Assembly: GCA_964537265.1 (NCBI GenBank)
Contig: CAZHZE010000001.1
Location: forward strand, 91,103 to 155,102
DNA from: an uncultured Gammaproteobacteria bacterium
Lineage (GTDB): Bacteria; Patescibacteriota; Patescibacteriia; Patescibacteriales; GWC2-42-12
Direction: 5' to 3'
DNA length: 64,000 nucleotides
Below, one piece after another: positions 4,632 through 42,116 of this stretch (positions within the stretch are counted from its first letter, which is position 1; every line of letters begins with the position of its first letter). Made by a program: the position numbers and the translations under genes. The notes under the pieces were generated by a model. It searched no databases. It had not been told where the DNA came from and saw only the letters and a program-made list of their open reading frames with translations.

Positions 4632-4670
4632 AATTTGTCACTCTTAAAATATAAAAATTAGGGGGAAAAA

Positions 4671-5012
4671 ATGGAAAAAATAAAATATTTTTTTGTTTGG
4701 TTGCACTTTAAAATTATAATGAAACGTTTAAACAATTGCCAGGAGATAAGTTTTTCTTCACTTTCAAGCACAACGCTGGAACATCCTGAATTTAAAAAAT
4801 TAACCTCTTTGGGGCCGACAATTATGCCTATGCTCCTAAAGAATTTACAAAAAATAAGGGATGATAAAAAAACTCTTGGTGCGTTAACAATTTTGCTCGC
4901 CCTACCTATTATTTCCGGAGAAAATCCTATTCTCAAAGAGCATCGCGGCAAAATGTCTAAAATGCAAAAAGATTGGATAAGATGGGGTAAAAAGAAAAAA
5001 TATTTAAAATAA
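4671..5012 (+). CDS. hypothetical protein (orphan, self-contained transcription unit)
   Basis: 113 aa. Strong SD (TAGGGGG, 5 nt before the ATG), own promoter and own terminator. Preferred over the overlapping antisense ORF 4658..5056. Confidence 0.5.
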   Translation: MEKIKYFFVWLHFKIIMKRLNNCQEISFSSLSSTTLEHPEFKKLTSLGPTIMPMLLKNLQKIRDDKKTLGALTILLALPIISGENPILKEHRGKMSKMQKDWIRWGKKKKYLK

Positions 5013-5030
5013 ATCTCCGTCAAAATAGTT

Positions 5031-5069
5031 ATAGCCAAATGAAGTCTTGTCTTCATTTGGCTATTTTTA
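5031..5069 (+). terminator. rho-independent terminator
   Basis: 14-bp perfect stem ATAGCCAAATGAAG / CTTCATTTGGCTAT, 6-nt loop, then TTTTT. Confidence 0.8.
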
Positions 5070-38281: not shown

Positions 38282-38303
38282 ATAACACGCTACTGCGTGT
38301 TAT
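38282..38303 (-). terminator. terminator hairpin downstream of rnpB
   Basis: ATAACACGC-AGTA-GCGTGTTAT on the minus strand, followed by GTTTT. Confidence 0.55.
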
Positions 38304-38319
38304 GAGAGTTATATTTCAC

Positions 38320-38713
38320 TAATATCAAGGTAAGCTATAAGCCGGATTCTGTATAAATGATTATCTATCTAGCCTTAGCGTTGCCGCTAAGGTCAAGCGA
38401 GCTACTTTTCATTATTCCGCGGATACGGAATAGTTTGCTCTTGCTCCAGGCAGGGTTTACCATCTAGCGCTGTTGCCAACGCAGAATGCTCATAGCCTAA
38501 GTTATTTGGATATCCTAATATAACTTAAACACTGGGCAACTTTTCACCTTTCCCTCATGTTATACGAGGTAGTATTGTCTCTGTGGCACTTTCCCTAAGA
38601 TTACTCTTGGTGGACGTTATCCACTGCCGCTTTCCAGCATAAAAAATGCTTTTGGAGTCCGGACTTTCCTCCCACTTAAATTAGTGGGCAATCATCCGCT
38701 TACCTTGATATTA
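38320..38713 (-). ncRNA. rnpB: RNase P RNA, bacterial type A
   Basis: The minus strand contains GGGAGGAAAGTCCGGACTCC (P4 5'), GGGAAAGTGCCACAGAGA, AAGGTGAAA, GATGGTAAACCCTGCCTGGAGCAAGAGCAAA, ACAGAATCCGGCTTATAGC (P4 3'). P1 pairs 38322-38335 with 38698-38711. Confidence 0.92.
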
Positions 38714-38742
38714 TTAAAATATAAATAGCAAATTATATAAAA

Positions 38743-38771
38743 ATATTACCATTAAATAGAAAAAAAGTCAA
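38743..38771 (-). promoter_or_regulatory. candidate rnpB promoter (TTGACT-17 nt-TGGTAATAT)
   Basis: Minus-strand TTGACT at 38771-38766, 17-nt spacer, extended -10 TGg TAATAT ending at 38743. Confidence 0.4.
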
Positions 38772-38785
38772 ATAATTAATTGAAT

Positions 38786-38820
38786 AAAAAAAGCTGCGAC
38801 ATTAAAAACTGCCGCAGCTT
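38786..38820 (-). terminator. rho-independent terminator of the small-ORF islet
   Basis: GCTGCG/CGCAGC stem followed on the minus strand by T7. Confidence 0.65.
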
Positions 38821-38834
38821 TATAAATACATTTA

Positions 38835-39350
38835 TTAAACAAAACCAGTTATGTCCTCCTGCTCATTATCATCTCCCCGGGATAACCATTTAACAATTGC
38901 GATTAACATAATGATTGAAGATATAATGACCGCGGTTACCACCTTCCAGCCGAAAATGAAAAAGATAATAATTGTTGTAACTATTGTCGAAACAACACCC
39001 ACCGCGATCCAAAAAATACTCTTTCTAAATCCCTCGAGGTCTTGCTCGCTATTATCCTGTTTGTTTGTTTCGCTATCCATTATTTTCTCGGCTAATCTTC
39101 TCTCTTTTTTATCTTTTTTAGCTCTTAGGCCGCAAAGATAAAAACAGAAAAAAATCCAGAGACCGATGACAGACCAGGCTTTATGAGATAATAGCCAGGC
39201 TATTATTTGATCGAACCTGCTCAAAAATTCATGGGTTGATCTCCATAAATTCGCCTGATAGATGATAACCGAAAAAGATATCGCAAGAAAAAAAATCAAT
39301 AACAAACTAACAACTAAATGGAACTTACTCCCCTGATTAATTTTGCTCAT
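38835..39350 (-). CDS. hypothetical 4-TM membrane protein (islet gene 3)
   Basis: 171 aa. SD-like TAGGGGGT 8 nt upstream of the ATG. Charged KKDKKERR...DNSEQD loop between TM pairs. Confidence 0.55.
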   Translation of the reverse strand: MSKINQGSKFHLVVSLLLIFFLAISFSVIIYQANLWRSTHEFLSRFDQIIAWLLSHKAWSVIGLWIFFCFYLCGLRAKKDKKERRLAEKIMDSETNKQDNSEQDLEGFRKSIFWIAVGVVSTIVTTIIIFFIFGWKVVTAVIISSIIMLIAIVKWLSRGDDNEQEDITGFV

Positions 39351-39388
39351 TTTTTATACCCCCTATTTAAAATAAAAAATCAATTTTT

Positions 39389-39529
39389 TTAAATCAGCTC
39401 ATCCCCTACAACCCTGCCACATTTAGGGCAAATCTCTCTGATGTATTTTCTTTTTGTTTTTGGATCTGTTCCTCTTTTCTTTATGGTTTTTCCGCTAAAA
39501 TTTTTACTCCAGCAACTACATTGGCTCAT
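39389..39529 (-). CDS. unannotated 46-aa basic zinc-ribbon-like small protein (islet gene 2)
   Basis: Manual translation: MSQCSCWSKNFSGKTIKKRGTDPKTKRKYIREICPKCGRVVGDELI*. Canonical SD GGAGGA 5 nt before the ATG. CxC...CxxC. Confidence 0.45.
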   Translation of the reverse strand: MSQCSCWSKNFSGKTIKKRGTDPKTKRKYIREICPKCGRVVGDELI

Positions 39530-39593
39530 AAATTCCTCCACAATCATTAATTGTTATAAAAATAAGATAAATGCGATAATAAACCATCTTTAC

Positions 39594-39749
39594 TTAAATA
39601 CTAAATCTTGCCATTATTATTGCATCTCTTGCTGATTCTTCTATTGATTTAATTAAAGCTTTGTCTTCTCTTTTTTTCCTTTTAGCTTCCGAAAAACTTC
39701 TCCGCCATTTTTTAAACAACTCACGCCATAACCATATTTTAAAGAACAT
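39594..39749 (-). CDS. unannotated 51-aa basic amphipathic small protein (islet gene 1)
   Basis: Manual translation: MFFKIWLWRELFKKWRRSFSEAKRKKREDKALIKSIEESARDAIIMARFSI*. Canonical SD AAGGAGGA 8 nt before the ATG. 34 nt downstream of the outer tRNA 3' end. Confidence 0.4.
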   Translation of the reverse strand: MFFKIWLWRELFKKWRRSFSEAKRKKREDKALIKSIEESARDAIIMARFSI

Positions 39750-39843
39750 AATATTTTTCCTCCTTTTGAAAAATATAACTTTGTGAACAATAGAGGACTC
39801 GAACCTCTGACCTTTCCGATGTGAACGGAACGCTCTAACTTCA

Positions 39844-39856
39844 CCCCGTCACCTTT
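39844..39856. repeat. 13-bp inverted-repeat arm flanking the inner tRNA-Val (3' side on the minus strand)
   Basis: AAAGGTGACGGGG (minus-strand reading) is perfectly complementary to CCCCGTCACCTTT at 39945-39933. Confidence 0.9.
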
Positions 39857-39858
39857 TG

Positions 39859-39932
39859 TGGGCACAAAAGGACTCGAACCTTTGACCTCTCCGATGTGAA
39901 CGGAGCACTCTAACCAACTGAGCTATGTGCCC
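39859..39932 (-). tRNA. tRNA-Val (anticodon CAC), inner complete gene, no encoded CCA
   Basis: GGGCACA-TA-GCTC-AGTTGGTTA-GAGT-G-CTCCG-TTCACAT-CGGAG-AGGTC-AAAGG-TTCGAGT-CCTTT-TGTGCCC-A. Confidence 0.92.
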
Positions 39933-39945
39933 AAAGGTGACGGGG
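39933..39945. repeat. 13-bp inverted-repeat arm flanking the inner tRNA-Val (5' side on the minus strand)
   Basis: CCCCGTCACCTTT abuts nucleotide 1 of the inner tRNA directly and pairs with 39856-39844. Confidence 0.9.
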
Positions 39946-39969
39946 CAAGCCTGAGCTAATTGTCCTTAA

Positions 39970-40383
39970 TCATTTTCCCGCGTTATCTAAAGCTTTATTA
40001 ACCAATTTATCAGCCTGACTATTTTTTTCTCTAAAAATATGCTTAAAAATAATCTTTTTAAAACCCAACGAAATATTATACACTTGAACGAATAAAGGCG
40101 CAAGGTCTTTATCTTTAACCCGATATTCTCTATTTAACTGTTTAACTACAAGTTCAGAATCAAGAAAAACATCTATTTCGCTAGCGCCCAAATCTTTGGC
40201 CTTATCCAAACCGGCTATTAAAGCTTTATACTCGGCTTGATTGTTAGTAGTTTCCCCTATATATTTAGAAATTTCAGCTACTAAATTTTCCTGCTCATCA
40301 AAAATAACCACACCAATACCAGCGGGGCCAGGGTTGCCTCGAGCGCCACCGTCAGTATAAAGTTTTAATTTTTTGTATTTCAT
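39970..40383 (-). CDS. rnhA: ribonuclease HI
   Basis: 137 aa. LYTDGGARGNPGPAGIGVVI, NNQAEYKALIAGL, DSELVVKQL. The TGA stop is 4 nt before the outer tRNA. Confidence 0.88.
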   Translation of the reverse strand: MKYKKLKLYTDGGARGNPGPAGIGVVIFDEQENLVAEISKYIGETTNNQAEYKALIAGLDKAKDLGASEIDVFLDSELVVKQLNREYRVKDKDLAPLFVQVYNISLGFKKIIFKHIFREKNSQADKLVNKALDNAGK

Positions 40384-40385
40384 AA

Positions 40386-42116
40386 TTATTTTTTACTTAA
40401 TTTTATATCAATAATTTTCATCTGGGTTGTCCGCCGGTTATTAAACTCATTAAACTCTAAATAATAGACTACATCGACTTCATCACCTATTTTAAAATCT
40501 TTTAAATTTTCCGCCTGGCTAAAAGCTACCGCCCAGATAGAATCAAATCTGAATTTAATATGTTGGGCTTCGGCTCCCATATTTATCTTATCCATAATTT
40601 TTAATTTTCTGCTTAAAAATTTAGGCTTTTCATTATCTTCGCCAAAAGGTTCAAATTTTTCCAATGTCTCTAATAGCTCATCGTTAATATCAATCAAATC
40701 AACTTCCGCTTCAATAAAAATTTTTGGCGCTAATTCAACCATCGCCAATGCTTCATCGGTAATTTTTTTCATATTCTTTTTGAAATCTCTTAAAACTTGA
40801 TAATTTTTCAAAGTAAATCCACAGGCTGACGCATGTCCGCCAAATTTTTCTAGATAAATACTAGATTTTTCAATCGCATTCATAATATTAAATTCGTCGA
40901 TGCTTCGACCAGAGCCTTTGATTTCGTCTTTTATTTTAGTAATAACTAAAACTGGCCTGGCATATTCATCACACAACCTGCCAGCTACTAAACCTACTAC
41001 TCCTTCAGGCCAACTTTCTGATTTATCATCTTCAATATTGGGTGAACAAAAAATAAAAATTTTATCTTTGAGCATTCCTTGATTAGCAATTTTACGGCAA
41101 AATTCTGTTATATCTTCGGTTATTTTTTGCCTTTCGCTATTTTTCACGTTTAATTTTCTAGCAATTTCTTGCGCTTCTTTTTTATTTTTAGTAATTAAAA
41201 TTTCGTAGGCTGTATTAGCATGGTCTAAGCGTCCGGCAGAATTTAATCTCGGTGAAATCTGCCAACCTAAATGAAAAGAATTTATTTTTTTATTAAAACT
41301 ATTATTAGTCTGAGCAACTTTTATTAGTTCGTTTATTCCTAATCTTTTTTGTTGATTTATTATTTCTAAACCGCGACTAACCAAAGTCCTATTCTCCCCA
41401 ATCAAACTCACCATATCAGCCACTGTACCAATCGCTACTAAATCTAAAACTTTCTCGGATAATTTATTCTTTAATTGTTCATCTAATTTCGATAATTCAA
41501 TTAAACCTTGAATAAATTTAAAAGCTACGCCTACGCCAGCAAAATTTTTATAACTATAATTTTCGGCTTTAGGATTTATGATTAAGCAGTCCGGCCAATT
41601 ATTTTTATCCGGCGGAGGCTCATGATGATCAGTTATAATTATATCTAAACCTAATTGTTTGGCATAAACCACTTCTTCCTTATTACGTATACCGTTATCA
41701 ACAGTGATTATTAATTTTGCGTTTATTTTTGCTAATTCATTAATAGCTTTTTTATTTAAGCCATAACCTTCGCTCGTTCTGGCTGGTATATAGACGCTTG
41801 TTTTAGCTTTAAAAATATTTAAAATTTCCACTAAAGTGGCTGTAGCAGTCACTCCATCAGCATCATAATCACCATAAACTATAATTAAATTTTGCTCTTT
41901 TATATGTTTAATAGTTAAATTTATCGCTTCTTTCATGTCTTTAAACAAAAAAGGGCTTGATAATTCAATTTTTTCAGGTTGAAAAAAATTTTTTATCTCT
42001 TGTTTGCTAACTATTCCCCTATTAAAAAGCAACTGAAGTATAATCTTATTATAGTCAGAATTTTCTTTAATAAAATCATTCGAAGCAACAGGTTTTAATT
42101 CCCATTTATTAACCAT
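40386..42116 (-). CDS. recJ: single-stranded-DNA-specific exonuclease RecJ
   Basis: 576 aa. DHH motifs (GDYDADGVTATA, ITDHH), DHHA1 (GGHASACG). Confidence 0.9.
   Translation of the reverse strand: MVNKWELKPVASNDFIKENSDYNKIILQLLFNRGIVSKQEIKNFFQPEKIELSSPFLFKDMKEAINLTIKHIKEQNLIIVYGDYDADGVTATATLVEILNIFKAKTSVYIPARTSEGYGLNKKAINELAKINAKLIITVDNGIRNKEEVVYAKQLGLDIIITDHHEPPPDKNNWPDCLIINPKAENYSYKNFAGVGVAFKFIQGLIELSKLDEQLKNKLSEKVLDLVAIGTVADMVSLIGENRTLVSRGLEIINQQKRLGINELIKVAQTNNSFNKKINSFHLGWQISPRLNSAGRLDHANTAYEILITKNKKEAQEIARKLNVKNSERQKITEDITEFCRKIANQGMLKDKIFIFCSPNIEDDKSESWPEGVVGLVAGRLCDEYARPVLVITKIKDEIKGSGRSIDEFNIMNAIEKSSIYLEKFGGHASACGFTLKNYQVLRDFKKNMKKITDEALAMVELAPKIFIEAEVDLIDINDELLETLEKFEPFGEDNEKPKFLSRKLKIMDKINMGAEAQHIKFRFDSIWAVAFSQAENLKDFKIGDEVDVVYYLEFNEFNNRRTTQMKIIDIKLSKK

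Follow-up and report, generated by a model that had tools for sequence, protein, structure and literature searches.

In Bacteroidia, a few strong Shine-Dalgarno (SD) signals stand out in a genome that is otherwise blind to them, as in rpsU (bS21) and rpsR, where the anti-SD is sequestered and the SDs act as regulatory devices (PMC7797042, PMC9976891). Here, we analyze a 64-kb stretch of DNA (hereafter, the window) from a low-GC bacterium, probably of the candidate phyla radiation (CPR), in which three small open reading frames (ORF1, ORF2, and ORF3) form an islet of 0.9 kb and are the only ones located between a nested tRNA-Val locus and rnpB; the islet and its neighbors lie on the minus strand unless stated otherwise. 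The two cases are alike in that the genome is nearly devoid of SDs, has A/U-rich starts, and contains a few genes with strong and conserved SDs. In contrast, the SD-led genes are here orphan and accessory rather than ribosomal, and their pairing energies of -9 to -12 kcal/mol differ from the extended helices of rpsU (below -13 kcal/mol). The likeness rests on the SD pattern; the 16S rRNA, rpsU, rpsR, and rpsF genes lie outside the window, and none of the three islet proteins matched the Ribosomal_S21 or S18 families of Pfam.

Another close comparison is with the variable islets described next to tRNA genes. As in these, the variable segment begins inside a tRNA gene, in its 3' portion, near-identical strains differ in it, orphan genes with atypical codon usage are present, and a more distant relative lacks the arrangement. 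Nevertheless, the islet is tiny (0.9 kb, of which 0.3-0.4 kb is exchanged) and has no integrase, no direct repeats, and no mobile-element genes. On balance, we favor as reasonably probable that the islet is a real, lineage-restricted, and strain-variable accessory operon of three small proteins that occupies a recombination hotspot next to the tRNA, shares a transcript with it, and is translated through SD pairing. Its products would be an ORF1 peptide swapped between strains, a dispensable zinc ribbon (ORF2), and a membrane protein (ORF3).

The translation signals are the first line of evidence. SDs were scored as the duplex energy between CACCUCCUUUC and the 20 nt upstream of each start codon. 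As the initial annotation had claimed, a strong SD precedes each islet ORF, and all three are correctly spaced: AAGGAGGA (39765-39758), 8 nt before the ATG of ORF1 with its GGAGG core 9 nt before it (-12.2 kcal/mol, the strongest in the window); GGAGGA (39539-39534), 4 nt before the ATG of ORF2 with its core 5 nt before it (-9.3 kcal/mol); and TAGGGGGT (39365-39358), 7 nt before the ATG of ORF3 (-10.7 kcal/mol). In contrast, nearly all scores of the 61 other long ORFs fall between +3 and -3 kcal/mol, and about two are below -5 kcal/mol, namely ORF 6888, with -7.3 kcal/mol but an implausible spacer of 13 nt, and ORF 13740, whose TTG start codon is doubtful. The difference between 3/3 in the islet and ~2/61 elsewhere is significant (Fisher exact p ~1e-4 to 3e-4). 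The regions upstream of non-islet genes contain 18% GC and 9% G, and the reported lack of SDs before housekeeping genes holds true for those whose identity was checked (PilB, LepA, RecJ, RNase H, MurJ, and sugar/glycosyl transferases).

Scanning the whole window for an SD followed by a start retrieved one further convincing case, an orphan of 113 aa on the plus strand (4671-5012) with TAGGGGGA 5-6 nt before its ATG, its own hairpin terminator (~5033-5062, plus strand), and synonymous codon usage below the typical value (p ~0.02); no match to it was found in Pfam, PHROG, PADLOC, or NCBIfam. A longer antisense ORF (4658-5056, minus strand) is probably its shadow. Other explanations of the SD arrangement in the islet were discarded. 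The exposure of the SD in the loop of an A/U hairpin next to the start codon is not supported, as such folds are no more stable than shuffled sequences (z -1.3 to +0.5) and are inconsistent across haplotypes; the stem flanking the SD has 9 bp in ORF1 and 7-9 bp in ORF3, compared with at most 7 bp in core genes. Similarly, the SDs do not seem to compensate for structured starts, the minimum free energies of the islet from -30 to +30 (-2.2 to -6.1) being within the core range (-3.9 +/- 2.7). The prfB gene, whose frameshift SD could serve as a proxy for a working anti-SD, is not in the 64-kb window.

The second line of evidence comes from a ~98% identical strain, represented by contig L009, in which part of the islet is replaced. 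Both sequences are 99-100% identical over recJ, rnhA, and the nested tRNA as far as the outer T-arm, where the agreement stops after GGTTCGAGTCCT (for rnhA, 98.3% was also obtained). Identity is again high (95-99%) over the final 16 nt of ORF2 and the features downstream, namely ORF3, the terminator, rnpB, and the sugar transferase gene. In between, at ~39795-39405 of the window, identity drops to 33-57% with many gaps, and a blastn search with positions 39735-39405 did not retrieve any match. This strain-variable cassette (39795-39405, minus strand) thus begins with the 3' T-stem and acceptor strand of the outer tRNA, includes ORF1, and takes in ORF2 without its last 16 nt. In L009, it is replaced by an unalignable and shorter sequence with a single ORF of 59 aa, preceded by its own SD (TTAGGAGGAT); ORF2 is absent, except for its 16-nt tail, which remains as a scar. 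The exchanged piece measures ~300-390 nt. Within the divergent stretch, a short island is conserved (GGAGGA..ATGTTCTTTAAAAT), so that the 59-aa ORF, unrelated to ORF1, shares with it the SD, the first 14 nt (ATGTTCTTTAAAAT), and the four initial codons (MFFK). Downstream, the L009 terminator shows three stem differences, a G->A and a C->T at one pair, which is still A-U paired, and one further G->A.

The 3' acceptor strand of the outer tRNA in L009 (TACGTCC) does not pair with the resident 5' strand (GGACAAT), which suggests an import of the segment by recombination, the donor being a diverged relative that shares the tRNA-SD-MFFK layout. The swap has the appearance of homologous recombination across two conserved flanks, the tRNA body on one side and the end of ORF2 together with the leader of ORF3 on the other. 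Indeed, synonymous divergence (dS) between the window and L009 climbs toward the islet, from 0.0075 in recJ to 0.036 in rnhA and 0.093 in ORF3, suggesting a recombination tract or a hotspot centered on the tRNA-islet-rnpB interval. Separately, independent assemblies of the same organism from Logan/ENA (contigs L001-L004 and L010) repeatedly break near 39835, in the outer tRNA, and at 38581, in rnpB, consistent with graph branching caused by co-existing islet haplotypes. Regarding single-nucleotide polymorphisms in the population, five other contigs of the organism, 99.8-100% identical to the window, were uninformative.

A third haplotype places the islet beyond this species. Among 5.8 billion proteins, ORF2 has a single homolog, P0003, a protein of 47 aa and 74-77% identity encoded on contig L005. 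At its end, this contig carries the rnpB promoter and 5' end found in the window (~94% identity over the last ~85 columns), showing that P0003 is the ORF2 ortholog in the same genomic slot of another species. There, ORF2 is followed by a 122-aa ORF with two membrane helices, a 40-aa hydrophobic ORF, and terminators, and SDs are again present: AGGAGGT 6 nt before the ATG of ORF2, GGTAGGGGAA before the 122-aa ORF, and AAGGGGGAG before the 40-aa ORF. A split of ORF3 in L005 was rejected, the 40-aa ORF being only a positional analog of its C-terminal half with no significant alignment. L005 also displays, at 838-867, an extra GC-rich hairpin of 13 bp (ATCCCCACACTT...AAGTGTGGGGAT) between the islet terminator and the -35 box of rnpB, absent from the window. 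Because another species has ORF2 and membrane ORFs at the same place, with an ORF2 dS of ~0.8, a recent and single import of the islet can be discounted. Contig L008 stems from a more distant relative (63% RecJ identity); there, the gene directly after recJ and rnhA encodes a malic enzyme, the tRNA, the islet, and rnpB are all missing from this place, and no SD-led gene start was detected in 13.6 kb. A search of IMG/VR with the 29-mer of the rnpB promoter gave no match. The proposal of an accessory and variable module is therefore borne out by the replacement of the ORF1/ORF2 part in L009, the absence of the arrangement in L008, and the deviant codon usage of ORF3.

These comparisons also bear on the SDs. 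The SD of ORF3 is identical in L009 and that of ORF1 is kept there as TTAGGAGGAT; more generally, SD-like purine runs are retained in the three haplotypes (window, L005, and L009) amid unalignable surroundings. Such retention argues that the SDs are under selection and would hence be used by the ribosome.

The available evidence from sequence comparisons indicates that the three islet ORFs are real genes. Their coordinates, strand, and lengths are exactly those initially annotated, ORF1 (39749-39594, 51 aa), ORF2 (39529-39389, 46 aa), and ORF3 (39350-38835, 171 aa). The two annotated ORFs that overlap them, 39441..39635 on the plus strand and 39653..39865 on the minus strand, are spurious, as had been noted: both are shadow ORFs, the second beginning within the tRNA locus. 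Reading frames are intact and the ratios of non-synonymous to synonymous divergence (dN/dS) are not near 1, being 0.21 for ORF2 and 0.08 for ORF3.

ORF2 is the best characterized of the three. Its start is the ATG at 39529, and not the one giving 52 aa in gene callers, because the SD would fall inside the longer version and the L005 ortholog has an upstream in-frame stop. Between ORF2 and P0003, the four cysteines (C4, C6, C34, and C37) are invariant and one codon indel keeps the frame, with the above dN/dS at a dS of ~0.8. The AlphaFold2 (AF2) model (mean predicted local distance difference test, pLDDT, of 80.6) displays three beta-strands at residues 16-21, 28-33, and 40-45. From these strands and the two invariant cysteine pairs, ORF2 is predicted to be a C4 zinc ribbon, in line with the basic CxC...CxxC zinc-ribbon-like peptide originally described. 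It resembles stand-alone zinc ribbons of the TFIIB/NrdR type, a kind that includes many uncharacterized small proteins of phages and archaea, in its two cysteine knuckles, in the predicted three-stranded ribbon, and in the motif ICPKCGRVVGD (ICPECGLVVGD in TFIIB). In contrast, its first knuckle is CxC instead of CxxC, no sequence or fold match is significant (best E 0.2-0.7), and its basic loop, GTDPKTKRKYIRE, is specific to the clade. Foldseek searches retrieved nothing better than E 0.7 in PDB and 0.2 in BFVD; Pfam at E<=10 returned only the TFIIB ribbon knuckle, a generic zinc-ribbon resemblance; and the ORF2 profile against all PDB chains gave the TFIIB knuckle at E 0.2 only, with no ribosomal chain at E<=10. 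ORF2 was therefore rejected as a ribosomal zinc ribbon (bL33, bL36, bL32, bL31, or uS14), including a pairing with ORF3 similar to rpmG-secE, as the likeness to bL33 was only by eye and no Pfam or PDB ribosomal match and no SecE match was found. No true relative was detected in GTDB genomes, in JGI metagenomes (scanned with protein patterns and with a degenerate DNA version of DPKTKRKYIRE), or in IMG/VR. Given its absence from L009, ORF2 appears to be conserved where present yet dispensable.

ORF3 is predicted to be a four-helix membrane protein, as initially proposed: the AF2 model is all-helical (pLDDT 62) and comprises four long helices of hydrophobic character; a charged loop occupies the center (residues ~76-110), and the C-terminus is acidic. 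Compared with its L009 counterpart (P0006), it shows nine synonymous and three non-synonymous changes (dN/dS 0.08), while the 122-aa ORF of L005 is 24% identical over the N-terminal half of ORF3 (pairwise E 7e-5). ORF3 thus seems constrained within the species and very fast diverging between species. Neither the word-indexed search of 5.8e9 proteins nor an exhaustive HMMER scan of 1.84e9 cluster representatives retrieved anything other than ORF3 itself. Residues 63-153 match DUF6249 (PF19762), a family of Bacteroidota that shares with ORF3 the small multi-pass membrane nature (E 2.6e-5). Nevertheless, membership was rejected, since the score of 24.6 bits is under the gathering cut-off of 33, the L005 counterpart is unmatched, and HMMER finds no relatives.

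ORF1 is the variable allele, a cationic, Trp/Phe-rich amphipathic peptide, which agrees with the basic amphipathic peptide of the initial annotation. It starts with MFFKIWLWRELFKKW..., followed by a basic helical part. Its N-terminus, FFKIWLWRELFKKW, is broken by K, R, and E and is amphipathic rather than transmembrane. Word-indexed searches of the 5.8e9 proteins retrieved only ORF1 itself, and its assignment to bS21 was rejected for lack of a Ribosomal_S21 match. Its in-frame codon score beats its other five frames. Among out-of-frame ATGs in the window, 5% open at least 51 codons and 3.7% at least 59 codons; both unrelated ORF1 alleles are open, over 51 and 59 codons.

The absence of recognizable families noted at first was thus confirmed across protein, profile, structure, phage, defense, genome, and metagenome searches, which yielded only self hits and the single ORF2 ortholog. 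Pfam, NCBIfam, PHROGs, and PADLOC gave sub-threshold noise for the three proteins, the best PHROG (E 0.0095) and PADLOC (E 0.0054) matches being typical of transmembrane segments. PDB sequence searches returned nothing significant, the fold search of the ORF2 model in BFVD reached E 0.2 at best, and no further relatives of the islet were found in GTDB genomes, JGI metagenomes, IMG/VR, or phage genomes (INPHARED). Regarding composition, the suggestion of a higher G+C content must be restricted: bulk GC (0.30, 0.37, and 0.36 for ORF1, ORF2, and ORF3) is within the range of the other genes (0.32 +/- 0.04), and the claim stands only at third codon positions (GC3), where ORF3 is an outlier (0.40 versus 0.256 +/- 0.044 in core genes). 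The synonymous-usage score of ORF3 (-0.01 versus 0.34 +/- 0.07 in the core) also deviates, both values lying beyond 5000/5000 length-matched core samples; ORF2 is marginal (p ~0.025) and ORF1 typical. The deviation of ORF3 fits a foreign ancestry and, equally, an effect of the hotspot such as biased gene conversion.

The minus-strand series in which the islet is embedded consists of recJ (42116-40386), rnhA (40383-39970), the nested tRNA-Val locus (39965-39784), ORF1, ORF2, ORF3, a terminator, rnpB, and a sugar-transferase/glycosyltransferase cluster. The intrinsic terminator closing the islet, which had been predicted, is confirmed at 38821-38790 (12-bp stem, six GC pairs, and a T-run). A sequence scan found no promoter-like site between rnhA and ORF1. 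The rnhA stop codon is 4 nt before the outer tRNA and the ATG of ORF1 is 34 nt after its 3' end, leaving no room for a promoter; most simply, the islet would be the 3' portion of the transcript that carries rnhA and the tRNA. Within rnhA, a TTGCGC-17-TATAAT match (40103-40075) was rejected as a promoter, as it consists of Tyr-Asn codons and proves nothing. The islet would therefore probably be transcribed as the tail of a (recJ-)rnhA-tRNA transcript stopped by its own terminator, and processing of the tRNA ends would yield an islet mRNA with a short leader. Each cistron would then be started by SD/anti-SD pairing, hardly used by the rest of the genome, and such a strong and self-contained ribosome-binding site would allow each small gene to be expressed wherever recombination puts it. 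A permissive Rfam scan of the islet for cis-regulatory RNAs retrieved tRNAs and noise only.

Regarding function, a membrane- or envelope-associated and strain-specific role, in inter-strain competition or immunity or in phage or host interaction, would be most likely from the sequence features, while a core cellular function is unlikely. A narrower version of this idea, in which the islet is a toxin/immunity or toxin-antitoxin module with a toxic ORF1 (or ORF3) neutralized by another islet product, is rather unlikely in our view. The Trp/Phe/Lys-rich amphipathic ORF1, the allele swap with a conserved start and an unrelated body between near-identical strains, reminiscent of polymorphic toxin or bacteriocin loci, the membrane partner, the tight operon, and the rapid divergence of ORF3 between species would all agree with it. 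However, no toxin-antitoxin, bacteriocin, contact-dependent inhibition, or defense profile was matched, a CdiI_N hit (E 0.007, 16.7 bits versus a cut-off of 25) being noise. ORF1 was also rejected as a type I or small hydrophobic toxin, as it lacks a continuous hydrophobic helix of ~18 or more residues, and it has no leader or export motif. A type II-like pair of ORF2 antitoxin and ORF3 toxin was equally discarded: L009 retains ORF3 (three amino acid changes) under purifying selection without ORF2, making ORF2 unlikely as a classic, essential antitoxin of ORF3.

The islet could instead be the remnant of an integrative element targeting the tRNA (phage, defense islet, or other), with SDs and codon usage inherited from an SD-using donor. 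We regard this as unlikely. The boundary of the variable segment, where L009 identity stops right after GGTTCGAGTCCT, lies inside the 3' part of the tRNA, the classic integrase target, as for integrative islands; the L009 allele brings a different and unpaired acceptor strand, ORF3 is an outlier in codon usage and GC3, all three proteins are orphans, and small stand-alone zinc ribbons are common among uncharacterized phage proteins, though the best BFVD match is that at E 0.2. Nevertheless, no tyrosine or serine integrase, or remnant thereof, was found between the tRNA and rnpB in Pfam, PHROGs, and NCBIfam searches, and a search for attL/attR repeats over 38300-40400 detected only the duplication of the inner and outer tRNA, the tRNA end not recurring near rnpB or the terminator, where it would bound the islet. 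The phage or defense remnant put forward in the initial annotation thus finds no support, no hits being obtained in PHROGs, PADLOC, IMG/VR, INPHARED, or BFVD. In addition, the exchanged piece is only ~300-390 nt long, islet and flanks have equal bulk GC, and the maintenance of SDs over an ORF2 dS of ~0.8, as well as in the related-lineage allele with the same tRNA-SD-MFFK layout, is better explained by selection within the clade than by the decay of foreign signals.

Extending the analogy with Bacteroidia, SD/anti-SD pairing might be kept for a restricted set of accessory genes that can be exchanged, comprising the islet ORFs and perhaps the 4671-5012 orphan, with the anti-SD acting as a dedicated channel and SD-carrying cassettes being swapped via the nested tRNA-Val. 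We hold this to be doubtful; one possibility would be that such a channel depends on a conditionally available anti-SD or on a subpopulation of ribosomes, similar to the bS21-lacking ribosomes in Flavobacteria.

A further idea, close to the factors tied to the odd tRNA locus that the initial annotation had listed, is that ORF2, and perhaps ORF1, are RNA-binding factors processing or stabilizing the neighboring RNAs. Of these, the tRNA locus is highly unusual. The outer gene of the nested locus is tRNA-Val(CAC)-like, its acceptor stem being 7 bp long (GGACAAT/ATTGTTC) and its D-stem, anticodon arm, and T arm intact. A perfect 13-bp inverted repeat (39945-39933 / 39856-39844) splits the D-loop and encloses a complete tRNA-Val(CAC) (39932-39858, 70.5 bits). 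The whole 189 nt fold as a cloverleaf within a cloverleaf (-78 kcal/mol, z = -6.2). The terms "nested" and "tRNAVal" are not used in a 2026 survey of tRNA introns in Patescibacteria. On the other side of the islet, rnpB (38707-38322) encodes an RNase P RNA of the bacterial type A (209 bits) and has its own promoter, TTGACT-17-TAATAT (38771-38743), identical in L009 and ~94% conserved in L005. A 27-nt inverted repeat, 93% complementary, brackets rnpB (38309-38335 and 38698-38724), extending helix P1 well past the ends of the Rfam model, so the RNA probably includes the "leader" that separates the promoter from the Rfam start and is conserved in L005 and L009. A very basic zinc ribbon encoded between these two RNAs, and probably co-transcribed with the tRNA, would suit an RNA-binding role. 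However, L009 keeps the inner tRNA, an identical nested locus up to the outer T-loop, and rnpB at 95-99% identity with the same promoter, yet has no ORF2 and an unrelated ORF1; moreover, ORF2 has no similarity to RnpA, archaeal Rpp21, Trm112, or ribosomal zinc-ribbon proteins. This role is therefore very improbable. The outer acceptor strand of L009, replaced and unpaired, argues that the outer tRNA copy is itself dispensable in that strain.

Finally, that the ORFs have no function or are of very recent origin (decaying sequence or proto-genes), with accidental SD-like runs, is highly improbable, and for ORF2 and ORF3 already largely refuted, since the orphan status and poor codon adaptation of all three and the lack of ORF1 conservation beyond four residues are outweighed by purifying selection on ORF2 and ORF3, intact frames in all haplotypes, the 3/3 correctly spaced SDs versus ~2/61 elsewhere, and their retention in L005 and L009.

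Several points weigh against the accessory operon that we favor and call for a cautious interpretation. The comparative evidence consists of two other haplotypes, each from one short metagenomic contig (948 bp for L005 and 3934 bp for L009), and a chimeric assembly of L009, a single short-read contig, cannot be fully excluded; nevertheless, its rnhA (98.3%) and ORF3 (97.7%) flanks both differ from the window, which fits one genuine strain. The conservation of ORF1 ends after MFFK. Several other family-less genes of the window have no SD, showing that SDs are not a general mark of orphan or hypothetical genes, and approximately half of the Parcubacteria 16S genes reportedly have no detectable anti-SD motif (PMC9297842). 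In addition, transcription and translation of the islet are predicted here from sequence, and the proposed function is drawn only from composition and evolutionary pattern.

The genomes of CPR/Patescibacteria are rich in small genes without family, and their rules of translation initiation are poorly known. In this context, the locus offers a compact test case, with three adjacent small genes under constraint and SDs that persist through both allele replacement and species divergence. If these SDs are functional, SD pairing would have been kept in the lineage for a special class of genes; if they are not, the lineage would repeatedly import genes from SD-using sources. The interest lies mainly in this pattern of SD usage and in the cassette-like replacement of alleles, rather than in any demonstrated new mechanism. 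The strain-level swap marks the interval between tRNA-Val and rnpB as a micro-hotspot, useful for strain tracking and for the discovery of accessory functions in episymbiotic bacteria.

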